Virus record (IMG/VR): IMGVR_UViG_3300031578_000158
Span: 1 to 37,482 of that record
DNA: 37,482 nucleotides
DNA from: a virus
Lineage: Duplodnaviria; Caudoviricetes
Strand: one strand, 5' to 3'
Part shown: one piece after another, positions 1 to 27,470 of the stretch
How the letters are laid out: each line of letters starts with the position of its first letter
Position numbering within the stretch: the stretch's first letter is position 1
Made by a program: the position numbers and the translations under genes
Notes under the pieces: generated by a model
Seen by the model: the letters and a program-made list of their open reading frames with translations, nothing else
Database searches by the model: none
What the model was told of the DNA's origin: nothing

Positions 1-409
1 TCCAGTATTCAACACTGATCTCTGAAACACCCAGGATCATACTTACCTCATAGAAGGACATATCCAGAATCTCAAGACATGTTTTTAATACATGAGTAAA
101 ATGGTCCTGAGAGATACCCTTAGTCAATGTTTCTGGAGTTTCAACCAGAATCTCGATCTGAGCCTCTAACCCAGCTACTTTGGCTTCTGGTTCTTGTTCT
201 GTCTTGTCCCCAAAAGACTCTCTCTGTACTACCTCTGATCCATAGAGGTCTCCTATCAACCCGTTCACCTCTGCATCCAATCTAATAGCAGCTAGCGCCA
301 TCTGGTGAGTGTTCGCCGATTCGTTTGCTGTATCTTCTCCTCTCATAATACAATCAGCCAGGTACTTGTGAATTGCCTTTCGTTCTTCGTGTGTGAGTCC
401 TGCTTCCAT
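1..409 (-). CDS. Hypothetical protein, 3' end outside window, probable helix-turn-helix near the edge
   Basis: Read manually: ATG at 409, open to base 1 (MEAGLTHEERKAIH...LEILDMSFYEVSMILGVSEISVEYW); the last segment fits an HTH pattern. Absent from the ORF track because no stop is in the window. Confidence 0.6.
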   Translation of the reverse strand, partial: MEAGLTHEERKAIHKYLADCIMRGEDTANESANTHQMALAAIRLDAEVNGLIGDLYGSEVVQRESFGDKTEQEPEAKVAGLEAQIEILVETPETLTKGISQDHFTHVLKTCLEILDMSFYEVSMILGVSEISVEYW

Positions 410-414
410 TGTTG

Positions 415-822
415 TTAGCTACTTTCAACAAGATATGCAATATGAGCAAGGAGTGCAGGACTGTTAATGTCTTGATCTTCCCCCCCTCGATACCGTCCCG
501 TGGTCTTGTTTCTGAAATACCAATCGAAGGATCCGTTTTTGAATATAGTAAACGACAAATTAAATATCTTAGTTGTCCAGTATATTTCTAGTCTATCGCA
601 ATATATCTCTGCAAAAGGAACCACGATAATTGCTCGCTCTAGGTCGATATGTGGAGCAATACCCGATTGCGGGATCTCCTTTTGCTCATTGGGCATAAAG
701 TAGTCCGTAACAATTAGTGCTGTTGTCAGTTGTTGCTCATTGATCTTATTCTCTGATTCAGATTTGTTGAGATAATCCAACCAGTCCTTCTTGGTGTATG
801 TTTTAGATTCAGTCATGATCAT
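415..822 (-). CDS. Hypothetical protein
   Basis: 135-aa ORF in the minus-strand array; ATGA overlap with the upstream ORF. Confidence 0.6.
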   Translation of the reverse strand: MIMTESKTYTKKDWLDYLNKSESENKINEQQLTTALIVTDYFMPNEQKEIPQSGIAPHIDLERAIIVVPFAEIYCDRLEIYWTTKIFNLSFTIFKNGSFDWYFRNKTTGRYRGGEDQDINSPALLAHIAYLVESS

Positions 823-995
823 TCTCTGTATCCTATCCAGGGGGGTCTTGGTGGATACGTTGTGACTCTAAGGTGCTCACTAGCACTTGGCCCGCAGGCA
901 GCACACTCAGGAATAGTTCTCTCTACCCAGACATGCCACGATTGACACTGATACACTCTTCTGATTGAGTTGGCGTCATGAATATGACATTTCAT
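819..995 (-). CDS. Small Cys/His-rich protein (58 aa), below ORF-track cutoff
   Basis: MKCHIHDANSIRRVYQCQSWHVWVERTIPECAACGP...; ATGA overlaps with neighbours on both sides. Confidence 0.6.
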   Translation of the reverse strand: MKCHIHDANSIRRVYQCQSWHVWVERTIPECAACGPSASEHLRVTTYPPRPPWIGYRE

Positions 996-1225
996 GGATG
1001 AGCCTCCTCTGGGTATATCTCAATTAGAATTACACCATCAATATCCAAGGAATAATGTACAGCACCACCACCATGTTCCTCTTTGACAAATGGTTCAATC
1101 CCGGGGAAATTGCTTGCATCTGGATATAGATTGAGGTCAAGGATGAGTTTAAATGCTTGTACGGCATCTTTTGGATATTTTGTTCTTAGGGTAACTATTT
1201 TGTCGAACTTGATTTGGTTGTTCAT
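992..1225 (-). CDS. VOC/glyoxalase-like small protein
   Basis: IVTLRT...FVKEEHGGGAVHYSLDIDGVILIEIYP resembles glyoxalase-like proteins. Start moved to ATG 1225, behind an AGAGGA SD (track start is 1240). Confidence 0.5.
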   Translation of the reverse strand: MNNQIKFDKIVTLRTKYPKDAVQAFKLILDLNLYPDASNFPGIEPFVKEEHGGGAVHYSLDIDGVILIEIYPEEAHP

Positions 1226-1292
1226 GTTGTTCCTCTCCATAATGTTTGTTCTGTCTCACCGATAGGTGAATAAAAAGGAAAATTGAGGAAAT

Positions 1293-1523
1293 CTATAATC
1301 TATTCCTGAAATGTTCTCCCACTTGCCTGTTCACCAACATTGCAGCTTCATAGCCCTGGTCCAACCCAATCAGATAACCAGACATAAAGCCTTCTCTTTG
1401 CCCCTCGTGTAGTTTGACATGACCGTGCTGTTTTGCCGCATGAATGATGCCAGGATCATAGATTTCATCGTCACACAGGAAGCACTTCATGATGGCATCT
1501 TGTCTCGGATATTGTTCTTCCAT
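1293..1523 (-). CDS. Hypothetical protein with CxxC
   Basis: 76-aa ORF with KCFLCD and a G-x3-G repeat (GQREGFMSGYLIGLDQGY). Confidence 0.55.
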   Translation of the reverse strand: MEEQYPRQDAIMKCFLCDDEIYDPGIIHAAKQHGHVKLHEGQREGFMSGYLIGLDQGYEAAMLVNRQVGEHFRNRL

Positions 1524-1657
1524 ATCTCTCTGTATCCACAGTGCCTACATTGAAATGTAACATGCCCAAGATCAAATAAATCATCTGGCCTGCCTTGCAT
1601 GACCAATTCGTACCTATGACTCCCGATTAAGCATAACAATTTTCTTAGAAATATCAC
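1487..1657 (-). CDS. DUF1660-like small phage protein
   Basis: GTG at 1657 with GTGA overlap; RKLLCLIGSHRY...QCRHCG pattern. Confidence 0.55.
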   Translation of the reverse strand: MIFLRKLLCLIGSHRYELVMQGRPDDLFDLGHVTFQCRHCGYREIWKNNIRDKMPS

Positions 1658-1971
1658 TCCCTCTCCTTGTTCAGCTCCTTGAGGCACTCCCTGCACGCCG
1701 CATTCCACCCGGCATCATAGGCTCCACCGGGTCCGGCTCCGTCCCATCGCGCCATCACCCCCTCCACGATCTCCACCGCTCGCTCGACCCATGCGTCGTG
1801 GCGTGCGGCCCTCGCCTCGTCGCGTTGATCTACCAGCCGCCTGATGATGGCTGCTGCCGCCGCAGTGGTCTCGCTCGATGCGAAGATCCCGAGCGCAACG
1901 CATTGCTCCAGCGCCAGCAGCACGTCCAACTCCCTCTCCGCCAGTACCCCATTCAACTCGTTGTCGGTCAT
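1654..1971 (-). CDS. Hypothetical protein, GC-rich module
   Basis: ATG 1971 with AAGGAG SD and ATGA overlap with the upstream gene; 105 aa. Confidence 0.65.
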   Translation of the reverse strand: MTDNELNGVLAERELDVLLALEQCVALGIFASSETTAAAAAIIRRLVDQRDEARAARHDAWVERAVEIVEGVMARWDGAGPGGAYDAGWNAACRECLKELNKERE

Positions 1972-2903
1972 TGGGTCTCCTTCCTTAGCGCGGCGATGAT
2001 CCGTGAGCAGGCTGCGTTTTTTCCGATGCTGAAATTGTCCATAAGCGGGGATTTTGGGCGCACCCCCTCCACTATCTCCTCGATCCTCTCCATGGGGATC
2101 GAGTCGGATGCGGGCCTCACTTCGGGATAGCAGTCCCCGTGGTGCAGGCCACCCCGCCGACCACAGCGGGGGCACGGGCCACCGATCTTGTAGGGCGTCT
2201 CCTCCCACCCCTTGTACTTGAGCGCCCCACGAACGAGCGCCAAGGCTCCGAGTGCGGCATTGATGGCGTCCATCTGCTCAAGAGATTTCCGCAGCACTGC
2301 CTCTGACTCCCGTGCGTCGGCCGCGTTGGCATCTAGGTCTGACTTCAGCTTCTCCACCTCGGCCCTCGCCTCGTCGCGATCGGCTACCAGTGCATCGCGG
2401 TCACAATCTCGGTCATTGACGGCTGCGCGGAGCGACGTGCTGTACTCCTCGACCAGGGCGCGTAGTCGATCCACCTCATCCTCAGCCTCCACTGCGCGCT
2501 TGCACCAGTAGCCTGTTGAACCATCAATGAATTTAATCTCAAGCTCGGCCTGCTGCGCCCTCACCTCCGTCTCGCGGAGATTCACGAGAGTTGCTTCCAT
2601 CTCCTCCTCGGAAGCCTCGAAAGCCTTTTGGACTGCCGTGTGCTCGTTGAAGCAGGCATCGAACGCATTGCACAAATGGCACTGTCCGCAGTCTACACAT
2701 TCCGAAAGGCAATGATCCGGTTCGTCGTGCATGAGGAGATCGATATAATCTGCGTTCGTTTTACAGATCCAGCATTCAAATTTTGGTTGTTCGATCGTGA
2801 AGAGATCAGCCGTGAAGAGATCAGCACCGCACTCTTTGCAGTACGGACGATCCACTGTGTAGACCGGAGAATGCCCCTCTACGTCGCAATCGTACTGGCT
2901 CAT
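1968..2903 (-). CDS. Mosaic Cys-rich and coiled-coil hypothetical protein
   Basis: 311 aa; several CxxC clusters, central heptad region, CPRCG..HHGDC; exact 15-bp tandem duplication at 2796-2825. Confidence 0.7.
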   Translation of the reverse strand: MSQYDCDVEGHSPVYTVDRPYCKECGADLFTADLFTIEQPKFECWICKTNADYIDLLMHDEPDHCLSECVDCGQCHLCNAFDACFNEHTAVQKAFEASEEEMEATLVNLRETEVRAQQAELEIKFIDGSTGYWCKRAVEAEDEVDRLRALVEEYSTSLRAAVNDRDCDRDALVADRDEARAEVEKLKSDLDANAADARESEAVLRKSLEQMDAINAALGALALVRGALKYKGWEETPYKIGGPCPRCGRRGGLHHGDCYPEVRPASDSIPMERIEEIVEGVRPKSPLMDNFSIGKNAACSRIIAALRKETQ

Positions 2904-2904
2904 T

Positions 2905-3102
2905 TTATGGGTTCCCTTTTGTCATTAACCCAACAAACTCTTTTACCGTTTCTTGCGTCCCCCTCGTGGCTGCAATCGCCTTGTCCAAAAGAAGCTGGAA
3001 AGTGATCTGCACAAAGAGCATTCTGTCGATGTTCTCGTTCATCTTCTTGTGCCCTTCTTCAAGTGCGTCGATTCGCTTGAGTAGATCTGTGATGTCGCTC
3101 AT
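2905..3102 (-). CDS. Small coiled-coil protein
   Basis: 65 aa; TAAAATG coupling on both sides. Confidence 0.6.
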   Translation of the reverse strand: MSDITDLLKRIDALEEGHKKMNENIDRMLFVQITFQLLLDKAIAATRGTQETVKEFVGLMTKGNP

Positions 3103-3206
3103 TTTATGGATTCCGATACGTGCTTCTGAAAAGACGAATATCTTCTTCGATCATGGCTTTCCTTTGTCTTCGTAGAACTGAATCCTGCCCTGGTTCATGA
3201 AAGCGG

Positions 3207-3422
3207 TCATGGGGTCTCCTTCTTCTCCACCAGCGCACCAATCTCCGCAGCTATCTGCTGTCCACACCCGCAGTCCCGTGAGTACGCGAGAGCCCACTGC
3301 ACCGCCTCCTTGAGTGCAGCACCCCAGCCCTCAGCCCTCGCCTCCTCCAGGCACAGCGGACAGGTCACTCCGGGGCGAAAGTACACAGCGTGCTCGGCGC
3401 AATTCAGCACGTCGTCAGTCAT
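3207..3422 (-). CDS. Hypothetical protein, GC-rich module
   Basis: 71 aa; GGAGG SD; CxxH...CPLC. Confidence 0.6.
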   Translation of the reverse strand: MTDDVLNCAEHAVYFRPGVTCPLCLEEARAEGWGAALKEAVQWALAYSRDCGCGQQIAAEIGALVEKKETP

Positions 3423-3423
3423 C

Positions 3424-4155
3424 TCAAACCTCCACTATAAAATGTTTATCAAATTCACGATTCAGACAGTGCGTGTATCCTCTTGGATTGCATACCACCC
3501 TTGTTTCTCCAACTAAGTAATCACAATTCCCATGAGTATGTCCGTGGATCCATAATTTAGGTTGTTTGTCCCAAATCAAATCCTCCATGTCGCACAAAAA
3601 GAATCTGTTGAGCTGACTTCCCTTGAACCTGGAATCAACGCTCTGTTCTGTCGGTAAATGATGTGTCACAACAATTGTGTCTTTATCTGTGTTCTCATTC
3701 AGAAACGTCTCTGCCCTGTCGTTCTGTTCATACACCCAGGGGTCAAATCCAGAAATAACCAAGAAGTCACTTAGCATTCTCTCGTAAAGAATATTTTCGG
3801 GGTGCTCTCTGAACCACAAAGAAGTTCCTGCAAACTTCTGACCATTAATCGTAACACACTCATGGTCGAGCCAGTGGAAGTTATCTAGCTTCCTGTTGAG
3901 GGCCTCCAGACGGTTGTGAACAATATGTGGGCTAACCCTGTAGTATTCGTGGTTGCCTGTGACATATACCACATGAGGATACAGGACTGCAAACTGCTCA
4001 AGCGCAAAGATGAGACCGTAGTCAATAAGTGAAATATCTCCGGCAAGTACGAGCACGTCAACGTCTTGGTCCTTGGGATAGACATCGGCCATGAATGAGT
4101 CCGGCCAGTGGTTGTCGAACTCAAAGTGGAGATCACTAAGTATTTGTATCTTCAT
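3424..4155 (-). CDS. Calcineurin-like metallophosphoesterase
   Basis: Motifs SDLH, AGDI, GNHE, THH, HGHTH and NPRGY. Confidence 0.92.
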   Translation of the reverse strand: MKIQILSDLHFEFDNHWPDSFMADVYPKDQDVDVLVLAGDISLIDYGLIFALEQFAVLYPHVVYVTGNHEYYRVSPHIVHNRLEALNRKLDNFHWLDHECVTINGQKFAGTSLWFREHPENILYERMLSDFLVISGFDPWVYEQNDRAETFLNENTDKDTIVVTHHLPTEQSVDSRFKGSQLNRFFLCDMEDLIWDKQPKLWIHGHTHGNCDYLVGETRVVCNPRGYTHCLNREFDKHFIVEV

Positions 4156-4802
4156 AGTTGCTGGTATTCGTGATTCACGATCTCAATGATCTTATCAATA
4201 AAGTCTTGAGATTGTTTCTTCACTCCTGTTCTGGCTTTGCTGGCTGTGTGTTCGATCTGATCCTTGATACTGCCAACTACAACATTCTTCTTCAATCGCT
4301 CTGCGTGTTTTGCGGCATCAACCACACCCTGGACTTTGGTTTCATATGCACTAAGTTCAAGTATGGCTTTATCTTTGAGTGCTGCGGTCTCAGTGTGTTG
4401 TTTGTGGGATTCCTCTAGTTCAACCTCAAGTGTGTCTATCTGTTTTTTGGCTGAATCTAGTTTCTCTTGTAGGTCTGTCGCTGAATCTTTTTGTCCGTAA
4501 TGTTCGTATACTTTGTATACGACATCCGCAGCAGCGGCAATTAAACGCTGCAAATTTAGTTCGTCATAGTCTATGTATCTGCCTCCGTCGCTTAAATAAA
4601 TAACTTCATTTTTACATCGGGTAGTGCCTTTAAAAACTCGCCCCATTATGTCCAGTGTTTGCTGGATCTTGATCTTATTGAGTTCTTCTTCTGCTTCCTT
4701 CTCTCTTTGTTGTCTTTCTAGTTTGATCTGTGAAATCCTCTGTTCCTCCTTTTTCTTGTAGTAATCCGCATCATGGTTCATCAAGTAATCACGGTGGCGC
4801 AT
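4152..4802 (-). CDS. Coiled-coil hypothetical protein
   Basis: 216 aa, rich in E/K/Q heptads; ATGA overlap with the phosphoesterase. Confidence 0.65.
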   Translation of the reverse strand: MRHRDYLMNHDADYYKKKEEQRISQIKLERQQREKEAEEELNKIKIQQTLDIMGRVFKGTTRCKNEVIYLSDGGRYIDYDELNLQRLIAAAADVVYKVYEHYGQKDSATDLQEKLDSAKKQIDTLEVELEESHKQHTETAALKDKAILELSAYETKVQGVVDAAKHAERLKKNVVVGSIKDQIEHTASKARTGVKKQSQDFIDKIIEIVNHEYQQL

Positions 4803-4804
4803 CT

Positions 4805-5020
4805 TTACACCTCGCTATGATCTTCGATCAGCTCAAGAACCTTAGACGCGGGGAAATGGGACAACTCGCTCAACACAATATTGAGCACCCCTGACAGTTC
4901 AGCGATGTTTAAGTTTACCTTGCCACCTTCTCTCTCTGCCACTCTCTTGGTTAGCGCCGCCTCATTGATCCTGCCGTCACTGCGATAGAGCATTGCTTTG
5001 TCCATCTTGTTGTCACTCAC
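4805..5020 (-). CDS. Small protein resembling the helical N-terminus of HU/IHF
   Basis: GTG 5020 after AGGAGG; INEAALTKRVAEREGGKVNLNIAELSGVLNIVLSEL is similar to HU helices 1-2, with no beta-arm. Confidence 0.4.
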   Translation of the reverse strand: MSDNKMDKAMLYRSDGRINEAALTKRVAEREGGKVNLNIAELSGVLNIVLSELSHFPASKVLELIEDHSEV

Positions 5021-5261
5021 CGTGGTCCTCCTTCTTGATGGTTGAACCTTCAAAGTTAATCAATTCCGTAATCTTTGTGTAAATCATTCCTGCACAAGAC
5101 TCCCAGAACACATGGGCACCAATCACAAGTGGGATACTACCCCGTATTCTCTGCGCAACATCTGCTGCCCGCCTTAGTCCGTCTATTCTTCCTTTAATGT
5201 AAGACCCAGGATGCTCCCATCCACATAGATCATGATCATGATTGCATGCTTTATATCTCAT
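5013..5261 (-). CDS. Hypothetical protein
   Basis: 82-aa ORF overlapping the next gene's start. Confidence 0.55.
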   Translation of the reverse strand: MRYKACNHDHDLCGWEHPGSYIKGRIDGLRRAADVAQRIRGSIPLVIGAHVFWESCAGMIYTKITELINFEGSTIKKEDHGE

Positions 5262-5359
5262 GGAGAACTCATGGCCTTTTCCAGTCGTTCTTCTCTAGTT
5301 CACTTAGATACCTAAAGAATCTATCAAGCGCAAGACAAAAGGCTATCATTATGGCTATC

Positions 5360-6106
5360 TTAGCCAGCATAAGGCCACGCACTCCTGAGAGTGTCATATA
5401 GCTGTTGATCTAATGTTGTTAATGATTGAATCGTACTGAGTTGTGACTTAGTTAGGTGACTTCTCTTGATCCTGTTCTCAGAAACATTCTGTACCGTAAG
5501 AGGTGCTGGATTACGGATATTGAAGGAGTCAATAACTTCTCGCCTAAGACAATATAGCTTTTCGGTTATACCGACAATGCAACAACGCAATACATCGTTG
5601 GCCTTCTCTAGCATCATGGCCCTTGTCTTTGGGGTCTGCCTAGAGGTTCTAAAGCGGCAAAATTTCCAATGATCTACATATTTTTCTAGTATGTATCTAA
5701 ATGGAAGGATAAGAGATCTAAGTTGGTAGTCTTCAATCATTGTTCTACCAGATTTGTCAACAAGGAACTGATCCAAAGACATACCAGACTTCATGCCGAA
5801 TTTCTTGGCTACATGTGTCCCCCTTGAATATTGATAGTATTGTGAGAGTGCCCTGTCTATCGGATTTCTCAATATTACAATAGGAACAAACTTTTTGCCT
5901 TCGTGTTCCCAGCCAAGGACATCTGGAACACCTCCACGAACAATTACAGCAGAAGTATTCCCATCTACTGCCTTTAGTCTTTTGGTGACAGCCGGTTCCC
6001 ACCCCTTGATGCATTGTCCACCATATGACTGCTCAAGGAATCTAGTGAACGCAGTCCCGCCTGTCTTGGGGACATGCAACAATACCGGTACACGTTTGTC
6101 GGTCAT
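5360..6106 (-). CDS. PAPS-dependent sulfotransferase (Sulfotransfer_2-like)
   Basis: 5'-PSB motif LLHVPKTGGT, 3'-PB motif ILRNPIDRALSQY, and C-terminal VGITE and LDQQLY. Confidence 0.88.
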   Translation of the reverse strand: MTDKRVPVLLHVPKTGGTAFTRFLEQSYGGQCIKGWEPAVTKRLKAVDGNTSAVIVRGGVPDVLGWEHEGKKFVPIVILRNPIDRALSQYYQYSRGTHVAKKFGMKSGMSLDQFLVDKSGRTMIEDYQLRSLILPFRYILEKYVDHWKFCRFRTSRQTPKTRAMMLEKANDVLRCCIVGITEKLYCLRREVIDSFNIRNPAPLTVQNVSENRIKRSHLTKSQLSTIQSLTTLDQQLYDTLRSAWPYAG

Positions 6107-6216
6107 GGTGGGTGGAGACTAACAGCAAAAAGTGTTCATGTCAACACGTCACAAACAATCTCAGACATATTGTTTTCAGCTTGACTCAACACACCGAAAA
6201 GGTTAATACTATCATC

Positions 6217-6537
6217 ATGAAGTACAGAAACTACGTCCATCGTGACGCCATCGAACGAGACTGGCCGAGCGGCCCTCATGACTCAAACAAGAAGCAACGT
6301 TCTAAGTCTGAACGACAAATTGTCAAGAGAGAGATCGGACAATTTGATCCGTTTGATTTATACTGCGAATACTGTGGCCGAAGGCTATGTAATTATGATT
6401 GTGACATGCATCTAGATGAAGACATGTATCTAGATGAAAGTGCATGGGCCGATATGTGCCTTGAAATGCTGATAGACAATCCACAAAGCCATAAAGTAGT
6501 AGAACAATACTTAATAGTTGACGAAACGGAGAATTAG
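6217..6537 (+). CDS. Hypothetical protein with basic N-terminus, Cys cluster and acidic tail
   Basis: Likely start ATG 6217; CEYCGRRLCNYDC; 18-bp tandem repeat at 6403-6438 (17/18 identical). Confidence 0.55.
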   Translation: MKYRNYVHRDAIERDWPSGPHDSNKKQRSKSERQIVKREIGQFDPFDLYCEYCGRRLCNYDCDMHLDEDMYLDESAWADMCLEMLIDNPQSHKVVEQYLIVDETEN

Positions 6538-6546
6538 TAGTAAAAT
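6518..6546 (+). promoter_or_regulatory. Sigma70-type promoter
   Basis: TTGACG-17 bp-TAAAAT upstream of the AGGAGG/TTG start at 6596. Confidence 0.7.
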
Positions 6547-6595
6547 TCAGCTTATTAGTATCCGTATGTTTTGTCCTATTTAGGAGGCTTCAATT

Positions 6596-7060
6596 TTGGC
6601 TATTGAGAACGATACAGACTATCTTCAAAAATCGGGCAAGGAAGAAGCACTCAACTTGCTTGTTGGGTCTAATTCTGCCGTAACGGCTCTTAGGTTTTCT
6701 ATCGATGACACATATGCCCCCCCGGTAGGCGCCCTGTTCACGTATACGGTTGATCTGGCCTCGTCTCAGATTCCCGCACCTGAACGGCTCAATGGTCCAT
6801 ATAGATACTGGACATTTACCACAGAAGATTTTGGTGGTGGAAGCGCAAACCTTTTAGTGGTTTTTGGCTCGGCAGATAACGCCGCTGCTTCTGCCGCAGC
6901 GGCAGATATTGGGGGGGTTGCTGGAACTACACATCTGGAGGTTGATCTTGGGTTTGTCCCCGATGGAATCCCAAGAACATTCTTCTTTAGAGATGGAATT
7001 ACCAGATGTGACATGTTCACCGTCACCGGGCCCACTGGCGTTATTGTAGAGATCCATTAA
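6596..7060 (+). CDS. Hypothetical protein, beta-rich, possibly virion-associated
   Basis: 154 aa; AGGAGG SD, TTG start; rich in A/G/T. Confidence 0.65.
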   Translation: MAIENDTDYLQKSGKEEALNLLVGSNSAVTALRFSIDDTYAPPVGALFTYTVDLASSQIPAPERLNGPYRYWTFTTEDFGGGSANLLVVFGSADNAAASAAAADIGGVAGTTHLEVDLGFVPDGIPRTFFFRDGITRCDMFTVTGPTGVIVEIH

Positions 7061-7062
7061 CA

Positions 7063-8298
7063 ATGGGACATCATCCTTGGCGCAACACCATGCACCCAGG
7101 TCCAATCTGGTATACCAATGCGGGGATGGGACACTGGTCGCAATACACTGCTCCCGTCGCATTTGTAGCTGGAACATGGGTTGAGCAAATTGCAGCAGGA
7201 TCAGTAACACCTATCTCTGGTTCTTTTGCTAGCTTCCCCCATGACGGGGCAGGTGGCAACAAGAATTGGTATTCATTGTCTCACACCGCTGGGTTCGGTG
7301 GTGATGAATTCCTACAGTTGCTCAGGGTGCCCAGTGATTATTCCGTAATTGAAGAGATCGACGCTCCATTTGCTGCATTTGACAGTTTGGCACTTTATCG
7401 TGGGTTAATGGTCAATGCCGGTATCACAGCGGAACTTATGATCACTGGACTTGCCGCTGATACTGTTTCTGTGAACGCCCACCTTGCGTATACGGCAACA
7501 CCGTTGACAACAACCTCTCCGACATGGACATCGGTGAATAAGTTTTCGGGAACCACAACGCCAACTGGATTCGTGATTCTTTCACCAATGCTCCCCCTTG
7601 TTGGGCATCATCTCGGACAGTCACATATGGCCCTTGCGCAGTCCGAAGTGAGTGGAGACATTGGTATTTACACATGGGACTCTCTCAGCGGAACATCTGA
7701 GGTTTTAGAGAACACAATATTAGCTTCCGCTTCTCTCCTGAACCAAGTCTCTGGTGGTGGACTGATTGTAAACGATAGTTTCCTTGCTTTCTCTTTCTAC
7801 GACAATGATGCTCAAGAATTCGTTGTAGTTGGGAAAGATCCCTCAACCTCGACCGTCCTTTTTGAGAGTCGCTCGGCACAGGCAGGTGGGACTACGGCAA
7901 ACGGAGTCACCAGGGGATCCGCCAGGGCAAATATTACCGCTACAGTGGCGGCAGAGTGTGAGTTCTACGTTGAGCCCATTGTGTTCCCTGCTGCGCCCAA
8001 GACAATGATTGTGACTACAGCCGGTGTCACATCAGAACCCACGCTACCGTCTTTGCCAAAAGGAAGCGGTGATCTTTCAAACAAACAATATGCCATTGTT
8101 GATGGTGGTTTGATCTACAGACGAGACACACCCGGGTTCACATATGCACTACAGACTAACGTAGTGGACTCTCCTGTTTTCACTGGTGGTGGTGCAGTTT
8201 CCCCAATGGTGGCTGATCGTTCTCTTGACCAATCTGATGGCTCTGCCATTCAGGTTCTCTTGGATGATGGAAGTGTCTGGACCTTTCATCCTTCCTAG
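7063..8298 (+). CDS. Ser/Thr/Gly-rich beta protein, possibly structural or propeller-like
   Basis: 411 aa; composition typical of virion accessory proteins; no family recognised. Confidence 0.6.
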   Translation: MGHHPWRNTMHPGPIWYTNAGMGHWSQYTAPVAFVAGTWVEQIAAGSVTPISGSFASFPHDGAGGNKNWYSLSHTAGFGGDEFLQLLRVPSDYSVIEEIDAPFAAFDSLALYRGLMVNAGITAELMITGLAADTVSVNAHLAYTATPLTTTSPTWTSVNKFSGTTTPTGFVILSPMLPLVGHHLGQSHMALAQSEVSGDIGIYTWDSLSGTSEVLENTILASASLLNQVSGGGLIVNDSFLAFSFYDNDAQEFVVVGKDPSTSTVLFESRSAQAGGTTANGVTRGSARANITATVAAECEFYVEPIVFPAAPKTMIVTTAGVTSEPTLPSLPKGSGDLSNKQYAIVDGGLIYRRDTPGFTYALQTNVVDSPVFTGGGAVSPMVADRSLDQSDGSAIQVLLDDGSVWTFHPS

Positions 8299-8310
8299 TG
8301 AGGAGGCATC

Positions 8311-8694
8311 ATGGATCCGCTTTCTCAACTAGGTGTCGGTGGAGTTTTCGCTGTCTTTATCATCAGGGAAGTGTTTAATCTCCTAGATAAACGCAAGACC
8401 GCTAATGGTTCTATAGAACCAGATGATTCTATCAAGAAGACTATCTATCAGATATCCAAACAGATAGATGACCTACATGACTGGCACAAGGTTACGGATG
8501 AGGATGGAGTCAAGGTGTGGTATGTCAGGCGAAGCCTGGAGACCTCCCTCAAAGATCTGTCTGATAATATTAGAATTCAGACTGAGGTTCTACAGAAGAT
8601 TCTCCAGACACAAACCAATATGGAGAACAATATGAACAAACTAGAGGCTGATCTGGCTAAACAGGCTGACAACAAATCTGTAAGTTCTGTCTAA
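8311..8694 (+). CDS. Holin-like protein (BhlA/UviB-like)
   Basis: Single N-terminal TM helix (SQLGVGGVFAVFII) followed by coiled coil; AGGAGG SD. Confidence 0.55.
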   Translation: MDPLSQLGVGGVFAVFIIREVFNLLDKRKTANGSIEPDDSIKKTIYQISKQIDDLHDWHKVTDEDGVKVWYVRRSLETSLKDLSDNIRIQTEVLQKILQTQTNMENNMNKLEADLAKQADNKSVSSV

Positions 8695-8723
8695 GTGTTG
8701 GTTATCGTTGGTGATCTTTTCCC

Positions 8724-8753
8724 TTGACAGAGACTAGACTGACCTGCTAGGGT
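8724..8753 (+). promoter_or_regulatory. Possible sigma70-type promoter
   Basis: TTGACA-18 bp-TAGGGT with TGn extension. Confidence 0.4.
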
Positions 8754-8787
8754 GGAGGGTGGTAGCGGGGGGATAATAAAAACACAT

Positions 8788-8844
8788 TAACTAAAGATAA
8801 CTAATAAATAAAGATAACTAAGATTAGTTAAATTAGTTAACTAA
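8788..8844. repeat. AT-rich cluster of TAACTAA/TTAGTTA heptamers (iteron- or operator-like)
   Basis: TAACTAA at 8788, 8798, 8815 and 8838; TTAGTTA at 8824 and 8833; perfect palindrome TTAGTTAACTAA at 8833-8844. Confidence 0.8.
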
Positions 8845-8859
8845 GGGGATACAAATTTC

Positions 8860-8979
8860 GTGCCAATTTCAATATTTGAATACGAACAGAATATATACAA
8901 TGCTGGTGTCCGTGGATGGTGGATTGGATTCTCTGTTGGTATTATCACAGGATTATTGCTCTCTGTTGTTCTTATGTGA
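8860..8979 (+). CDS. Small membrane peptide (39 aa)
   Basis: GTG start after AAGGGG; MPISIFEYEQNIYNAGVRGWWIGFSVGIITGLLLSVVLM has one hydrophobic helix. Confidence 0.45.
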   Translation: MPISIFEYEQNIYNAGVRGWWIGFSVGIITGLLLSVVLM

Positions 8980-9026
8980 CACCTTATGTGACACCACTTG
9001 ACAAGATAAGATCCAGGTGGTAGGAT
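8971..9026 (+). promoter_or_regulatory. Strong sigma70-type promoter with upstream 12-bp tandem repeat
   Basis: CTTATGTGACAC x2 (8971-8994), then TTGACA (8998)-17 bp-TAGGAT (9021) with TGn extended -10. Confidence 0.75.
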
Positions 9027-9055
9027 TCATTCAGTGATTAGCGAGGTATTTGAAA

Positions 9056-9254
9056 AACAAAGTTGCGGTTGTCACGGCAAGGTTTTTGGGTATAACCTAC
9101 TGTGAGGGAAGAGTTCCCGTGTGTGTGTGGTTTCTCCTTCCGTTGTTGGTCATGGTGTTTCCTTCGTCGCTTCTCTCCTCGCTCTTTCTGTTTCTCTCAC
9201 GAATGAACTCACAAAAACCCAACTCTTTTAGCCTAATGACTGCACGAAGTTGTT
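9056..9254 (+). ncRNA. Putative rod-shaped sRNA with anti-RBS loop
   Basis: Nested stems 9056-60/9250-54, 9064-71/9237-44, 9076-78/9231-33, 9081-88/9212-19 and 9102-10/9192-9200; G-U pairs favour the + strand; 9113-9198 contains a single A. Confidence 0.65.
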
Positions 9255-9257
9255 ATA

Positions 9258-9324
9258 TTTCATCCGTCAAAATCCTTGTCCCAAAGGGTCGTGCCCCGCT
9301 ATACGGCTCGGAATCAGGATGAAA
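9258..9324 (+). ncRNA. Unassigned multibranch RNA element
   Basis: Closing stem TTTCATCC/GGATGAAA enclosing hairpins CCTT..AAGG and GTCGTG..TACGGC. Confidence 0.45.
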
Positions 9325-9326
9325 CA

Positions 9327-9398
9327 CGGGGGTTCGTCTAATGGTAAGACCGTGGGAAACAACCCATGTTGCAGGTTCGAGTCCTGCACCCCAGACCA
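9327..9398 (+). tRNA. tRNA-like element with non-canonical anticodon loop
   Basis: Acceptor 6/7 bp plus A-CCA; D-arm GTCT-AATGGTA-AGAC; T-arm GCAGG-TTCGAGT-CCTGC; anticodon stem GTGGG/CCCAT closes a 6-nt AAACAA loop. Confidence 0.8.
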
Positions 9399-9403
9399 TT
9401 GCC

Positions 9404-9618
9404 CTCATGGATTATTCGGTGTGTAAACCATGAGTATTTCACATTCAAGTAAGATCTTGCAGGGTCGAGCCTCTGGGTGTGGTGTCGGTCAGCACCGGCC
9501 CAATCTTTTTAGTGGCTGCAATCACAATGATAGAAGGTTGGGCATTGTAGGGTAGTGTGGAGGGGGGTCCAGTAAATGAGACTGGATCACGCCAGGGGCG
9601 AGGATTGGGCCGCCTGGT
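9404..9618 (+). ncRNA. Series of structured elements between the two tRNA-like units
   Basis: Hairpin 9404-10/9428-34; junction 9451-9507 ending in a T-run; stems 9516-22/9544-50, 9566-73/9581-88 and 9591-96/9613-18. Confidence 0.5.
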
Positions 9619-9621
9619 TGA

Positions 9622-9687
9622 CCCCTGTAGCTCAGTCGGGAGAGCCGTCAGTTCTGGGTCGGAGGTTCGAGTCCTCCCAGGGGGCCA
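9622..9687 (+). tRNA. tRNA-like element with truncated anticodon arm
   Basis: CCCCTG/CAGGGG acceptor plus G-CCA; TA-GCTC-AGTCGGGA-GAGC D-arm; GGAGG-TTCGAGT-CCTCC T-arm; only 15 nt between D and T arms (about 22-23 in a normal tRNA). Confidence 0.8.
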
Positions 9688-9689
9688 TT

Positions 9690-9875
9690 ATGAATATAAA
9701 ACAAGAACTCAGAAGAGTAGTTGAAAGAATGTTGAATACCCCCAGTTGGGAATCAGATGATTTCAATACTGGGTGGGTTGCGGCTTGTGAAGAATTACTC
9801 ATAGCTATGGACGGCGAAGGGGATTTTGTAGACATTAATCAGATGATCGCAGACAAAGAAAGCGATGGCGTATGA
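9690..9875 (+). CDS. Hypothetical protein (61 aa)
   Basis: ATG 9690, 2 nt after the CCA; MNIKQELRRVV...GWVAACEELL. Confidence 0.6.
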   Translation: MNIKQELRRVVERMLNTPSWESDDFNTGWVAACEELLIAMDGEGDFVDINQMIADKESDGV

Positions 9876-9961
9876 TTCTTGCGTTAATCGCAATCGCTGA
9901 TGTATACGTGATTGTATGGATGGTCCACGAGTTGAGATATTGTTGGAGGGGGAATGACTAA
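9872..9961 (+). CDS. Small hydrophobic peptide (29 aa)
   Basis: ATGA overlap with the upstream gene; MILALIAIADVYVIVWMVHEL... Confidence 0.4.
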   Translation: MILALIAIADVYVIVWMVHELRYCWRGND

Positions 9962-10133
9962 CTTTATTATTGGCCTTGTGGTTCTGGCCGTGTGGGGCCC
10001 GTTCTGTCACTATTTCGTCTTTGATTGGGGCCACAAGAAACGGAGTATGAAGTATGATTGGTATTCCGAAGATGAAGATAGTCAACATGTATTCTGTGGG
10101 GGAGACAAAGTACCTGATCATAAGATGCCCTAA
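9954..10133 (+). CDS. Small membrane protein (59 aa)
   Basis: GGAGG SD; MTNFIIGLVVLAVWGPF... Confidence 0.45.
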   Translation: MTNFIIGLVVLAVWGPFCHYFVFDWGHKKRSMKYDWYSEDEDSQHVFCGGDKVPDHKMP

Positions 10134-10332
10134 GTGTGGCATGAGGTTTGGACACCCCGAGAACAGATTTAGTGTTGAATGCCCCAGGGTGGGTTGCATA
10201 AATGTTGATGGCCTGGTAAACATCAGAGATCGTTTTAGGGTTGCTGATCTTGAATCTACATGCAGAACGATAATTGGTTCTTCAAACTTCGCTAATAAAT
10301 GGAGTCAGATAAAATGGACACCGCAGGGCTAG
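10054..10332 (+). CDS. Zinc-ribbon protein
   Basis: IRCPKCG...VECPRVGC; start codon uncertain. Confidence 0.55.
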   Translation: MIGIPKMKIVNMYSVGETKYLIIRCPKCGMRFGHPENRFSVECPRVGCINVDGLVNIRDRFRVADLESTCRTIIGSSNFANKWSQIKWTPQG

Positions 10333-10703
10333 CCGTTGAGATGATGGAGTCAGGTAAATTTGATAGACCTGAGATTTATGTTGCCAAGTTCCAGGCAGCC
10401 ATTGATACAATCCAGCAACAGACCGCTAAGGCTGTAGCCAATAAGTACAATGGTCAGGTCATGGCATTAGATGAGAAGATCAAGAAACTTTGTGTGGCCT
10501 CTAAGAATGTGTGCATTCATTATATCAATGATGGCACCCGCAATGATGATGCTGGGTATAACGATGGTGGATGTTCTGGCCCTTGTGTGAGTTTTGGCTC
10601 TGACACTCAGTTGCAGGAATTTGAAGACAAGATTGAGAAGATCGTAGGCGTGCTGGAACAGGAGTTTGGCATCACATTTCCTGAGATTTACGCCGGGGAT
10701 TAA
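10314..10703 (+). CDS. Hypothetical protein
   Basis: GGAG SD before ATG 10314; within the + strand operon. Confidence 0.6.
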   Translation: MDTAGLAVEMMESGKFDRPEIYVAKFQAAIDTIQQQTAKAVANKYNGQVMALDEKIKKLCVASKNVCIHYINDGTRNDDAGYNDGGCSGPCVSFGSDTQLQEFEDKIEKIVGVLEQEFGITFPEIYAGD

Positions 10704-10721
10704 TTTTGTTATACTGCCCAT

Positions 10722-10925
10722 ATGGGTGCAATTACTTTCTTCCTCTATTTGAACATTTTTGCTATGGTCTTCGGTCTTGGCTGTGGCCTGTTGGAGTTCA
10801 AACAAAGGTTGGCCTATCGTGAGGATAACGCATTTATAAAGTCACTTGGGCTGTCATGTGCATACATGATGTCGTCAATGGTCATTATCAATGCAATCAG
10901 AATTGTTATAGCGTTGATGTTTTAG
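10722..10925 (+). CDS. Small two-TM membrane protein
   Basis: Two hydrophobic stretches in 67 aa. Confidence 0.55.
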   Translation: MGAITFFLYLNIFAMVFGLGCGLLEFKQRLAYREDNAFIKSLGLSCAYMMSSMVIINAIRIVIALMF

Positions 10926-10926
10926 T

Positions 10927-11670
10927 ATGAAACGCTCTACTGTATTATTCCTGGCAAAGAACAGGTTTGCATTTACACAGGCATCTCTGCTATCCGTGCT
11001 GAGATACACCAATCCAGAATTGACAGAGAGAGTTGTCTTGGTCGATGGTGGATCCGAAGATGGGACAAAGGAATTCTTGCGTGATATTTGTACTATATAT
11101 GACGGGCCACACATCCTTGAGTTTGTCGCGGGTCAGGTCGGGCATGTCTGCGATTGTTTCAAATACGTTGTCCCTAGTTGTGGCACCGATTTCCTGGCTA
11201 AGATTGACAACGATGTCGTTGTGCCACCTTATTGGATGGATCATTGTGTTGAGATTCTCGATGGCAATCCAAAGATTTCATTTCTTGGGACTGTTGCTAG
11301 GGACTCCAAGCCGTTTGATGCCTCAGATGAGGCAGAGAGGTCTACTATTGGGGTCAAGAATATTGGAGGAGTTGGATTATTCAGAACCAAACCATTTAAG
11401 AGGACCATGCCGAAGGGAGCAAACAAATACTTTGGGTTCCAGGGGTTCCAGTCTCAATCAGGTGGCGGGTGCGCATGGGTCCACCCAAACATGAGGTGCT
11501 TTTTGCTGGACAAGGTTCCTGTTGAGCCATGGAGGGGGCTGACTAAGAATTACATTAGCAAGGGGTATCAACGGAGTTGGCAGCCATACAAGAAGGATCC
11601 CGATTTTTGGTCATGGTTCCTTGATGATAATTTTGTTGATGATTATATCTCAGAAGAGGCAATGGAATAA
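10927..11670 (+). CDS. Glycosyltransferase family 2
   Basis: VVLVDGGSEDGT and FLAKIDNDVVV (DxD) motifs. Confidence 0.88.
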   Translation: MKRSTVLFLAKNRFAFTQASLLSVLRYTNPELTERVVLVDGGSEDGTKEFLRDICTIYDGPHILEFVAGQVGHVCDCFKYVVPSCGTDFLAKIDNDVVVPPYWMDHCVEILDGNPKISFLGTVARDSKPFDASDEAERSTIGVKNIGGVGLFRTKPFKRTMPKGANKYFGFQGFQSQSGGGCAWVHPNMRCFLLDKVPVEPWRGLTKNYISKGYQRSWQPYKKDPDFWSWFLDDNFVDDYISEEAME

Positions 11671-12188
11671 TGAGCAAAATCCAAGTGGCAGATGAGCCTT
11701 GGTGGACTCCCGGGGCTATTAAGCTGATTGAGGATCATTTGTGTAATGTTCCCGATCCTGGCGCTGACATCCTTGAGTTTGGTTGTGGCGGTTCTACGGT
11801 TTGGCTCTCTCGTCTTTGTGCGTCGTTGATCTCTGTAGACCACAACCAAGAGTGGGTGGATGCAGTCAACCAAAAGATCGGAGACCTTGAGCCACTGATT
11901 GATGTGTACAAGAGAGATAGGCCGTATCACACGGTGTGCGACAAGATGAAGGGTGATTTTGATCTGGTCTGCGTGGACGGGAGAGACCGGATACAATGTG
12001 TTCAAGCGTCTAAGGCGCTGGTTCGGCCTGGTGGGATTCTTCTCTTGGACAACTCAGAACGAGAGAAGTACAAGCCTATTTTCAGTATGTTAAAAACATG
12101 GCATAGAATTGAAACTAGCTGGAATTACTTCCATCATCTCAAACAGAAAAGGATTGGATGGTCAACAACAATGTGGATGAAACCATGA
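11670..12188 (+). CDS. Class I SAM-dependent (O-)methyltransferase
   Basis: ILEFGCGGST, ISVDH, FDLVCVDG and RPGGILLLDN motifs. Confidence 0.88.
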   Translation: MSKIQVADEPWWTPGAIKLIEDHLCNVPDPGADILEFGCGGSTVWLSRLCASLISVDHNQEWVDAVNQKIGDLEPLIDVYKRDRPYHTVCDKMKGDFDLVCVDGRDRIQCVQASKALVRPGGILLLDNSEREKYKPIFSMLKTWHRIETSWNYFHHLKQKRIGWSTTMWMKP

Positions 12189-12892
12189 ATATTGTACCAG
12201 GCGAGGAAATTCGTGAGGTGGATGTTTACGGAAAGACATTCACTGTCTTGGCTAAAAATAAGTGGTTCTGGGATCGTGTAGAGAAACGAGTATGGGAACC
12301 AGAGACGTTCAAGATTCTCGACCAGTATCTTACCAGAGAGGTTTACTATCTTGATGTTGGTGCCTGGATTGGTCCCACTGCCATGTTCGCGGCAACATTG
12401 GCCGGTCATGTTTGTTGTGTTGAACCTGATCCGGTAGCAAGGGCAATCCTGACTAAGAACATGTATATGAACGGGCGCCGTCATAAATTTGATTATGACA
12501 TCATCCATGGGGCCATTTGCCCTAATAGAGCAACTGTAGTGGTCAAAGCCAGGGGTGCTCTTGGCAACAGTATGACTTCGATATATGGATCTGGCGAAGG
12601 CAGAGTAGTCGATGCATACACAATCCAAAGATTAGGCACCGGACCCGACAATCTATTTGTTAAGATGGACACAGAGGGGGCAGAAGCAGAGATTATCCCC
12701 GGGGAAATTCAGTTTCTTTGTGACAATAAAGTTACCGTATACTTGTCTCTGCACTGGGACGTGATCCCCGCTGCCAAGCACAAAGGGCTGATTGAGGCCA
12801 TGTACAAGATGCGAGTGGAGGATGTTCACGGAAACAATATCCCTGTGAAAGATATCTTGAATTATCGAACCGTAATGCTACTTCCTGGTTGA
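12185..12892 (+). CDS. FkbM-family methyltransferase
   Basis: WEPET, LDVGAWIG, VEP and VKMDTEGAE motifs; start at 12185 by ATGA overlap. Confidence 0.9.
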   Translation: MNIVPGEEIREVDVYGKTFTVLAKNKWFWDRVEKRVWEPETFKILDQYLTREVYYLDVGAWIGPTAMFAATLAGHVCCVEPDPVARAILTKNMYMNGRRHKFDYDIIHGAICPNRATVVVKARGALGNSMTSIYGSGEGRVVDAYTIQRLGTGPDNLFVKMDTEGAEAEIIPGEIQFLCDNKVTVYLSLHWDVIPAAKHKGLIEAMYKMRVEDVHGNNIPVKDILNYRTVMLLPG

Positions 12893-13785: not shown

Positions 13786-14334
13786 ATGAGCGGAAATTAT
13801 CACGATCCAGTCAATCATCCGTCACATTACTGTGATCATCCATCTGGTGTGGAGTGTATTGAGATTACCGAACACATGAGCTTTAATCTAGGAAACGCAG
13901 TTAAGTACCTATGGAGGGCGGGGAACAAAGATCCTGGCAAGAAAGAACAGGATCTCAAGAAGGCCATGTGGTATATTGATCGCGAGATCGGTAGAGAAGG
14001 AACCGTGAACGACCTAGCAATTGATATTGAAACAGTCATGGAGATGTTCCCTAGCATTGTCGAAGATATTGATGAGTGTGATGTTCCACCTGAATGGCTC
14101 GATCCAGACGCTGGGAAGATTAAACCATCAAGTTACACACAGGTGTCGATGGTCAAAGACCCACCGAATGATTGTAAAAAGAAAGATACTGATGTCCCGG
14201 TAACGTGTTTGTATGACGACTATATCCCGACTAGTGAGACTGTTGGATCAACCACCAAGAAATATAATCAGATGAGAGCATCTGATCTTTTACCCAGCCA
14301 GGCACGTAAAAACGTGACACTTGCAGGAGCCTAA
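13786..14334 (+). CDS. DUF3310 domain protein with C-terminal extension
   Basis: DPVNHPSHY...ECIEI...FNLGNAVKYLWRAG.K...DLKKAMWYI signature. Confidence 0.9.
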   Translation: MSGNYHDPVNHPSHYCDHPSGVECIEITEHMSFNLGNAVKYLWRAGNKDPGKKEQDLKKAMWYIDREIGREGTVNDLAIDIETVMEMFPSIVEDIDECDVPPEWLDPDAGKIKPSSYTQVSMVKDPPNDCKKKDTDVPVTCLYDDYIPTSETVGSTTKKYNQMRASDLLPSQARKNVTLAGA

Positions 14335-17647: not shown

Positions 17648-18157
17648 ATGGCGAGTTCCACTGCGGACAAGAAAATTACTGAATTCATTAAAGACTTAAA
17701 TTCTACAACTCCAAGAAAAAGAGCAAAAAGGGAAGATGGCGTAATCGCCATGTTGGAGTTGTTGGACCCACTTGAGCTAAATAACTTATGTGGGAACGAC
17801 AAAGAATTCAGGTTAACCGTAGATGCAGAGAACCGCCGTGCCGTTCTCAAGGCACAACATCTTCTTCATCTTGTACTAGAAGAGATGATGTCAGAGGAAA
17901 GACTTGAATGCACGAATCTTGATGACCTGAGAAAGACAGCAGATGCTGCTGCAAAGATTTCCCAGCTTCTCAATAACAGGCCCACTGCCATTGCAGGGAA
18001 GCCTGACTTAGATGAATCAAGTGATGACGACATTACCAAGAAACCACATTCTTCACTTACCGATGATGAATTGGCAGTGATGATGAAGAGAGCCCAGGAC
18101 AACAAGCAGAGGCTAGAAAAGAATATTGGTCCTGTTAGGTTACATAAGGATAAGTAG
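17648..18157 (+). CDS. terS: Probable terminase small subunit
   Basis: Helical 169-aa protein directly upstream of TerL; positional call only. Confidence 0.55.
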   Translation: MASSTADKKITEFIKDLNSTTPRKRAKREDGVIAMLELLDPLELNNLCGNDKEFRLTVDAENRRAVLKAQHLLHLVLEEMMSEERLECTNLDDLRKTADAAAKISQLLNNRPTAIAGKPDLDESSDDDITKKPHSSLTDDELAVMMKRAQDNKQRLEKNIGPVRLHKDK

Positions 18158-25816: not shown

Positions 25817-26320
25817 ATGTCAAGAAACGTCGATAAATATCTCAAGAGAGTCAAGAACAATAACGACAGAGAGAAGTTGCTCAGAGAGTCGATCTTGTTG
25901 TCTGGTTATTTCAATGTTAATGATCTTGAGATTGACGATCATTTGAATTTCTGTATTGATATGACGTTCAATCCAAAATCCACAAGCTATGCAGAAGCGT
26001 TGATCACATCAGACATTGATACTGTAATTGGCAAGATCGTGTGTCAGATTCTTGACATCATGATTGTTTCGTCAAGGCTATTCCCAAAACTCAAGTACAG
26101 GTACGAAGCCTTCAAGGTGGCTGTAAACTACCACTCAGACGCCCCCGGTGAGTCGTGGCAGCTAGGCTTCTGGACACACAGGGATGCAATCTTGAAGATC
26201 AAGTTATCGAGGGAGTTCAAGGAACACGGGATCAAGAACAAAGAGGTTATCACCTCCTGGCTAAAACAGACCAACATGAGTACATACAAAGAACCTGTAG
26301 CACAGGAAATGTTGGCATGA
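25817..26320 (+). CDS. Hypothetical protein
   Basis: GGAGG SD; 167 aa; coupled to the next gene by ATGA. Confidence 0.65.
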   Translation: MSRNVDKYLKRVKNNNDREKLLRESILLSGYFNVNDLEIDDHLNFCIDMTFNPKSTSYAEALITSDIDTVIGKIVCQILDIMIVSSRLFPKLKYRYEAFKVAVNYHSDAPGESWQLGFWTHRDAILKIKLSREFKEHGIKNKEVITSWLKQTNMSTYKEPVAQEMLA

Positions 26321-27438
26321 ATGTAATTTGTATTCTTTATGATTCTCTCAGACAAGATTGTGTACAAAGATGCCCATCTTTTGTGGAACTAAAGTCAAGA
26401 AGCCTGTATGTCTCAGACATTATGGCTGCATCTACTTGGACCAAGACATCCATAGCATCAATTTTCGCGGCAGCATATCCGGTAGAACACGGTGTGTATT
26501 ATGAGAATAGCGTGTTCCCCGATCAGGAGACATGGCTTCATAAGCTCAAATACTCACTGAGTACGAAAACTACTGGTATTAGCTCTAACCCGTGGATCAT
26601 GGAAAAGTTTGGATTCAGCAAGTTATTTGATAATTTCAAGTATGTGAACTGGGATCCTCACAGTCCAACGATTGGTTCAGAGAAATGCTGTGATACAAAA
26701 ATATACAGCATGCTGAAAAAGATGTTCAGTGAGCACACATCTAACAACTTTGTATATACTCATATGATGAGGACGCACCAGCCATATCATGCCAATTCTT
26801 ATTGGGCGGGAGTTCAGGCTTGTGGTCAGCAAGTCCTTGATTTCATTGACTTTATTGACAATGGCCCCAATGCGGACAACACAGTTGTCATGGTCGTGTC
26901 TGACCATGGTGAATCACTAGGTGAGAACGGGTTCAATTTTCATTCAGATAGTGTACAGCACGTAGAGGCGAAGGTTCCCATGTTCCTGTACAGCAAGGGA
27001 TCCGCCCAAAGTATGGGGACAGTGATGGATGAGTTTGTTGGGTCCAATGTTGATATTGGTCCTACCATTCTTGACATCTTTGGCCTGGGCGAAGACGTAT
27101 TAGAGTCCTTTCTTCCTGGTATCAGTGTATTTGACAATCCAGATCCAAATAGAATCAGGATCATTGAGTCACATGCGAGAGGCAAGACGGGCATGGGGAG
27201 GAAAACCGCCATTGTCCAGGGGAATAAAAAGACAGTATTTCACGGCGACAAGCTAGAGTATGTTTGTGACCCACACACAGAAGCCAGGATAAAATCAATA
27301 GGATCAACTAGTGCTATTGCAACTGAGATCTTTATGGGGTATAAGGATCATGAAGTAGATGTTTTCAACTCGCTTCCGCAAGAAGATGTGGACCAGATTA
27401 AAGTTGAAAACAGCATGAAAGAATTAGGATATCTGTAA
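26317..27438 (+). CDS. Sulfatase-like alkaline phosphatase superfamily enzyme (Thr at nucleophile position)
   Basis: YDSLRQD, STWTKTSIASIF..YPVEHG, THQPY, SDHGE, DIGPTILD and C-terminal KELGYL; start at 26317 by ATGA overlap. Confidence 0.85.
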   Translation: MNVICILYDSLRQDCVQRCPSFVELKSRSLYVSDIMAASTWTKTSIASIFAAAYPVEHGVYYENSVFPDQETWLHKLKYSLSTKTTGISSNPWIMEKFGFSKLFDNFKYVNWDPHSPTIGSEKCCDTKIYSMLKKMFSEHTSNNFVYTHMMRTHQPYHANSYWAGVQACGQQVLDFIDFIDNGPNADNTVVMVVSDHGESLGENGFNFHSDSVQHVEAKVPMFLYSKGSAQSMGTVMDEFVGSNVDIGPTILDIFGLGEDVLESFLPGISVFDNPDPNRIRIIESHARGKTGMGRKTAIVQGNKKTVFHGDKLEYVCDPHTEARIKSIGSTSAIATEIFMGYKDHEVDVFNSLPQEDVDQIKVENSMKELGYL

Positions 27439-27470
27439 TTCTCAATGAGGCCGTCAGGTCCGAGGACGCA

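Follow-up and report, generated by a model that had tools for sequence, protein, structure and literature searches.

The segment at 9141-9165 of an uncultured tailed phage is likely the pairing seed of a predicted + strand noncoding RNA that would act in trans on the starts of the phage's own leftward genes and dampen their translation, a reading to which we give about an even chance. It is the best of the readings considered, and the parts of it shown below are the complementarity itself, its selectivity for leftward starts, an A-poor and weakly folded context with three anti-SD motifs, consensus promoters and tRNA-like elements.

The window, the whole 37,482-nt stretch of DNA that was analysed, is a fragment of the tailed-phage record IMGVR_UViG_3300031578_000158. 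The phage has a GC content of 45%, and the window contains HK97-type head genes, a terminase at 18157, and glycosyl- and methyltransferases. By gene calls, 1-6106 holds small leftward genes and from about 6230 onward all called genes are rightward, those that flank the element included. The presence in one phage of glycosyltransferases, methyltransferases, a sulfatase and a sulfotransferase (10927-12892, 26155-29945 and 5360-6106) is an observation in its own right, as is the location of the sulfatase and a large glycosyltransferase amid head and tail genes. Sampled words of 5000-12000 are contained to 94-99% in each of three soil metagenome runs, two of which may be the source. A second record of the same phage has the element region unchanged, and contigs of runs X1 and X3 span it without differences, so the element DNA is not an assembly artefact. 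Contigs of run X5 cover the modules 1677-2326 and 3204-3418; the element is uncovered there, a gap without evidential weight.

Table 1. Positions in the window of the element, its surroundings and its predicted targets (duplex energies with the seed in kcal/mol)
Feature	Position	Strand	Basis or remark
Second consensus promoter, upstream, same direction	8724..8753	+	consensus match
Consensus housekeeping-sigma promoter TTGACA-17-TAGGAT, extended -10	8998..9026	+	predicted start near 9033
Predicted RNA, leader up to the first tRNA-like element	9033..9326	+	promoter and element positions; ends predicted
18-codon ORF opened by the seed segment (rival reading)	9097..9153	-	no consensus promoter upstream
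86-nt stretch with a single A (anti-AUG), GU repeat and three anti-SD motifs	9113..9198	+	sequence
Seed	9141..9165	+	antisense to the leftward start family (SD, start codon, first four codons); minus strand is SD + ATG
tRNA-like RNA, encoded CCA, 6-nt anticodon loop, no readable anticodon	9327..9398	+	34.3 bits
Second tRNA-like RNA, anticodon arm replaced by ~10 nt, adjoins the start at 9690	9621..9688	+	36.4 bits, E 9.3e-6
Predicted target, 105-aa gene at 1971 (SD + start)	1959..1983	-	-36.9
Predicted target, 19-codon ORF at 3210 (SD + start)	3198..3222	-	-28.8
Predicted target, 71-aa gene at 5020 (SD + GTG start)	5008..5032	-	-27.2; missed in the preliminary description
Predicted target, sulfotransferase start at 6106, no SD, predicted near-leaderless	6096..6110	-	-27.0
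Leftward-arm consensus promoter TTGACA-17-TAGTCT	6116..6144	-	-10 box ends 9 nt before the sulfotransferase ATG

The complementarity was pointed out in a preliminary description made from the letters of the DNA, and its three principal alignments proved exact on re-alignment: 9141-9165 with 1959-1983 (21/25, with two G-U pairs), 9143-9157 with the sulfotransferase start at 6096-6110 (14/15, with one G-U) and 9147-9165 with 3204-3222 (16/19, with two G-U). The sulfotransferase label given to the 6106 gene is also borne out, by PF03567 (E 4e-5, 24.3 bits versus a cut-off of 22); the supposed gene at 3210 is an ORF of 19 codons only. Three weaker matches that were also listed are present when placed in start-codon register, with identities of 17/25 (start 1225), 15/25 (3154) and 15/25 (12925), but not in other registers, where 7/18 and 5/14 were found, and their energies (-19.6, -22.8 and -21.8 kcal/mol, in the same order) are within the tail of the background. 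That background comprises the seed duplexes with 14,940 windows of both strands (mean -12.6, sd 3.4 kcal/mol), and the four best of them are at the starts 1971, 3210, 5020 and 6106. In the comparison of energies with those of other start regions, proposed earlier, the match exceeds chance: of 820 foreign starts, all SD-bearing, read antisense and drawn from terminase-related phages and two mycobacteriophages, none (0/820) matches the seed's best duplex or its top-four sum, and the closest of them to the 1971 start reaches 19/25 identity. As the top four duplexes are all with leftward starts and no foreign start equals them, the match exceeds that of any generic consensus ribosome site. In another 14,642 nt of this phage, where only rightward structural genes lie, no seed duplex is better than -25.4.

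Among the starts that had not been named before, the seed prefers leftward (n=11) over rightward ones (n=32), with -17.9 versus -13.3 kcal/mol (p=0.0014), keeping in mind that the six starts named earlier were omitted from this test, that it is one of several run and that the list of starts is our own annotation. SD strength alone does not differ between left and right starts (p=0.30). For the same start set the natural antisense sequences of 1971, 3210 and 5020 have no left preference (p=0.15, 0.19 and 0.21, respectively); that of 6106 is left-selective too (p=0.003). In pairing with other starts, the antisense of 1971 and that of 3210 equal the seed (best -35.1 and -35.8), with 19 and 15 starts, respectively, at -18 or better versus 14 for the seed; of 48 other starts, only 18 pair better with the seed than with the 1971 antisense. 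The borders of the seed were set after the matches were known, and its G-U (wobble) signature comprises two independent positions only. The proposal that one RNA could silence many starts is partly supported, in that the complementarity is specific to the phage's leftward starts, unnamed ones included, but the strong predicted targets are four. The accompanying caveat, that some matching is expected from any consensus-like ribosome-binding site, was understated, the seed itself being a perfect sense-strand start of the 1971/3210 family.

The evidence for a + strand RNA begins with its promoters. A strict promoter motif occurs five times in the window versus 0.85 times in 200 shuffles (maximum 4), and two occurrences on the + strand (8724 and 8998), consensus matches only, point into the element. 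On the minus strand 9160-9720 has no strict promoter, only two 4-of-6 sites near 9571. No terminator was found between 9033 and the first tRNA-like element. The AT-rich sequence between the two rightward promoters, 8780-8850, has short repeats and an inverted repeat, and is a candidate origin or operator.

The composition of the 86-nt stretch is unusual, with its one A to be compared with six in the next-lowest 86-nt interval of the window. In 2.4 Mb of other phage DNA there are 52 intervals with two or fewer A, and only four of the 52 are at a GC of 0.60 or less. The anti-SD motifs are at 9134-9141, 9159-9165 and 9173-9180. Two of the three corresponding SD-like motifs are without a start codon at a usable minus-strand distance, and the anti-SD motifs that flank the seed have no outstanding target, with their best genome-wide duplexes mostly within genes. 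The matches were initially ascribed to the loop of an sRNA. The region is weakly folded (z +1.74), with 193 of 200 shuffles folding as well, and the stem that would close the loop, 9076-9124 with 9197-9233, is not above chance (175 of 1000 shuffles and 335 of 2018 genome pairs), and so the loop is unsupported. Opening the anti-SD of the seed costs 2.0 kcal/mol and opening the seed in full 7.2, which is the RNA's median value; the duplexes are at -27 to -37. The preliminary observation is therefore partly confirmed, its matches standing and its loop not, and the interpretation put on it is partly supported.

Both tRNA-like RNAs downstream score above the Rfam tRNA gathering value of 29 and have acceptor, D and T arms with CCA, but both lack the 5-bp anticodon stem with 7-nt loop of a tRNA. 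Position 9327 is a possible RNase P cut site at which the upstream RNA could be freed; from what is generally known of tRNA processing, such a cut would make its 3′ end. The sequence between the two, 9400-9620 (+), folds somewhat better than shuffles (z -2.11); it is ORF-poor and hairpin-rich with a degenerate T-arm-like sequence near 9458-9476. Scanning of the whole window with Rfam gave no family at gathering score, and at E-value level the matches in 8690-9750 are to tRNA only. YrlA Y RNA (RF02553) was considered and rejected at 16.2 bits versus a gathering score of 69 (E 3), as was tmRNA, of which ARAGORN found none; a terminase-related virus record does have a tmRNA gene (L050:4501-4841).

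If the element is a trans-acting antisense RNA, the host housekeeping polymerase is predicted to transcribe it from about 9033, and RNase P may free an RNA of about 290 nt at the 9327 tRNA-like element. Its open A-free middle would nucleate at an SD or AUG through U- and G-rich pairing that is tolerant of wobble, and the pairing is computed to extend to 15-23 pairs over the starts 1971, 3210, 5020 and 6106. Loading of 30S would thereby be blocked at 1971, 3210 and 5020 and at the leaderless start 6106. Because the 6106 message is predicted to be near-leaderless, pairing there would mask the 5′ end and initial codons instead of an SD. The sulfotransferase gene with this predicted near-leaderless message is the first gene of the leftward arm. 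It counts against the reading that the strongest target, 1971, belongs to a module swapped in recently. Since the two promoters share one housekeeping type, they favour neither late shut-off nor constant damping. A more far-reaching version, to which we give a modest chance, is that one wobble-rich A-free RNA, released where host RNase P cuts at a tRNA mimic without an anticodon, would mask SD, start and first codons of the whole accessory arm, leaderless start included. Its control would extend to incoming modules through the shared start-associated boundary sequence that they bring with them.

The reading that competes best with a trans-acting RNA has a substantial though clearly lesser chance than it, and is that the segment is an orphan start: a fourth copy of the start-associated boundary sequence, stranded by module shuffling or gene loss and without an antisense role. 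On the minus strand the seed has an SD at 6-nt spacing and an ATG followed by three more codons, in the same orientation as the targets, and two copies of the motif there, 1965-1983 and 3204-3222, are identical to each other at 18 of 19 positions. Database copies of the motif are gene starts. The one non-self match of the exact 21-mer is the start of a LuxR-type gene in an unrelated virus, all five matches of the motif in A-free flanks start ORFs of 41-157 aa (two of the five being identical), and the four matches of the family pattern in GTDB start long ORFs. In all, each of the 10 non-self copies of the single motif in the databases apparently starts an ORF of at least 41 aa; of the three non-self matches of the tandem pattern, one is a real start and two are inside coding DNA.

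The match of other contigs to the window breaks off at 1981 and starts at 3204 and 3222, which are motif edges, and the first 46 residues of the 1971 protein are common to two other proteins with divergence after that. Because the motif marks these junctions and there is this shared N-terminus, a relic of a module junction is a serious rival, and recombination at boundary sequences is a described model (PMC3233612). The minus-strand regions 1654-2903 and 3207-3422 are GC-rich mosaic modules, 90-99% shared with contigs of other soil elements, and 3210-3104 (-) has chains of 16-19-codon ORFs coupled via overlapping stop and start. The 3210 start is likewise strong with only 19 codons behind it. 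A different minus-strand frame, upstream of the element's ATG, ends with KETP-stop overlapping that ATG, as do the genes ending at 3207 and 1968, but this ending is a trivial consequence of the motif, and a T-free strand cannot hold stops.

A stranded start would leave unexplained the three tandem SD-like motifs and the single A in 86 nt of a phage with the GC content given above. The site is moreover within a wholly rightward block with no minus-strand promoter, and past codon 4 it has no resemblance to any leftward gene. A survey for orphans of this type covered 478 SD-bearing short-ORF starts in gaps, 410 from eight related genomes and 68 from four Cluster K half-genomes, with two stretch-edge duplicates and one promoter repeat dropped. 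Its best start-like case has 19/25 identity to the starts of its own genome, and the element, at 21/25, is rank 1 of 54 in its own. With nothing comparable among the 478 in other phages, none being above 19/25, orphans of such quality are rare, yet the clade is also without an analogue of the element.

There is a small chance that the RNA is real but mainly host-directed, a general anti-SD and anti-AUG damper, or that the repeat is a DNA or RNA site for binding of a protein, with the phage matches due to the shared start consensus. The occurrence of the family pattern at four bacterial gene starts in GTDB, one of which presumably resembles rbfA, fits this, and U and G at the variable positions permit wobble to many starts. 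However, the 24-letter pattern has only four matches in 596 Gb versus two in the window, and for an operator the copy at 9147 would be unusually placed, about 120 nt past the predicted start. Marginally less probable again is a leftward mini-gene, in which a minus-strand promoter, weak or non-consensus, would drive expression of a peptide of 18 residues (9153-9097) through the SD and ATG. Its SD is good and at 6-nt spacing, its context is U-poor and unstructured, and the leftward arm has further SD-bearing ORFs of 16-19 codons (3154 and 3210), but there is no consensus promoter upstream on the minus strand, where the nearest 4-of-6 sites, at about 9571, are antisense to the tRNA-like RNAs, the two opposing promoters are strong and no homologue was found. 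A chance match to any consensus-like ribosome site is very improbable, for though the 6106 match is made up of four leader letters and the common start of MTD-type proteins and the three weaker matches are unexceptional, the seed's values are reached by none of the foreign starts, and for 1971 and 3210 this reading is largely refuted.

On sequence comparison the element is a singleton. Single-protein scans for close relatives with the terminase and a holin-like protein found only the second record of the same phage, and the 1971 gene has no relative in viral contigs or phage records. A search for the 341-nt region among 50 of the 80 terminase-related records turned up the same phage and otherwise just nine matches of 14-19 nt. 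A contig of 93,781 nt with identical proteins does exist. No homologue of the element was found in 49 terminase-related records or in 50,697 phage records, and blastn found no match in 76 of 79 holin-like loci (the three loci of the same phage being excluded).

The c4 antisense RNA of phages P1 and P7 targets ant mRNA and is structured with its pairing sequences in loops (PMC12197685). The likeness is that of a phage RNA pairing in trans with a ribosome-binding region and blocking translation, here as a prediction, and the differences are the poor structure of the region here and its four predicted targets versus the ant mRNA. Like c4, the element has complementarity to the ribosome-binding regions of distant messages and + strand promoters of its own, the latter as consensus matches only. 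The Rfam covariance model of the c4 family gave no match, neither at gathering score nor with E allowed up to 10.

Several anti-SD motifs per RNA are known from the cuckoo sRNAs of alphaproteobacteria and the C-rich loops of S. aureus RNAIII-type RNAs (PMC4615179), and the presence of multiple anti-SD motifs in one RNA is the likeness to the element. Those RNAs are host-encoded and have a fixed 9-letter motif in 2-4 separate hairpin loops, whereas here there is one open A-free stretch that includes an anti-AUG. Membership of the cuckoo family was rejected since its CCUCCUCCC loop motif and 2-4 hairpins are absent here.

By analogy, the closest architecture to that of the element is the system of Start-Associated Sequences (SAS) of Cluster K mycobacteriophages (PMC3203893, PMC11373665); Cluster EF Microbacterium phages also have SAS (PMC7302621). 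In Cluster K, four genomes have one opposite-orientation copy that is not tied to a gene, and the authors suggested that it may be a small leftward ORF and left open an RNA or protein ligand (PMC3203893). A conserved start motif on non-structural genes together with a single opposite-orientation copy without a gene is what the two have in common, and here too a single complementary copy is in a noncoding, oppositely transcribed stretch, though by analogy only. There are 11-19 near-identical 13-mers in the SAS phages versus two close and two looser copies here, with no sequence likeness. The motif here spans the first four codons and has no tight hairpin, and membership by the 13-bp SAS consensus was rejected, the motif being different and present as three copies of a 19-mer. 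Boundary sequences of mosaic phage genomes, short conserved sequences where modules change (PMC3233612), resemble the junctions at 1981, 3204 and 3222; they account for the leftward copies but not alone for the isolated copy in the rightward block.

In Adephagia (JF704105), the single opposite-orientation SAS is on the + strand of the gap between genes 92 and 93 (L099:30655-30722), where late transcription starts (PMC11373665). This copy is the 10-nt loop of a strong hairpin, with no start codon following it on the opposite strand. The gap region has matches in 193 phage records, and in Cluster K1 the late-leader hairpin is located behind a conserved TAGACT box (L099, L101-L108). The pyrimidine anti-SD loop is kept in nine of 14 aligned sequences and lost in five, and among the nine that keep it the stem has two-sided changes at six of 20 pairs. 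Co-variation of SAS and loop is absent in the two phages compared, Amohnition and Phrank, in which the loop differs but the SAS is unchanged. As an analogue, Cluster K shows that the design exists and not that the phage studied here uses it. Its hairpin is the more testable case since this phage is uncultured and its element a singleton. The window also encodes a DUF3310 protein (13786-14334, +). Speculation that the DUF3310 protein of Adephagia affects translation of SAS genes is to be found in the paper on that phage (PMC11373665).

In the literature covered, which is thin on subscription journals, we found no tested phage RNA directed against a start motif that several phage genes share. 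The antisense RNAs described from phages, c4 among them, have one message each. If the trans-acting reading is true, a block of accessory genes would be switched in one step by an RNA against their common start motif, and such an RNA would answer the question, open since 2011, of whether the ligand of SAS is RNA or protein (PMC3203893). Should its more far-reaching version be true, the element, together with the anti-SD late-leader hairpin of Cluster K, would supply the missing ligand of start-associated sequences.
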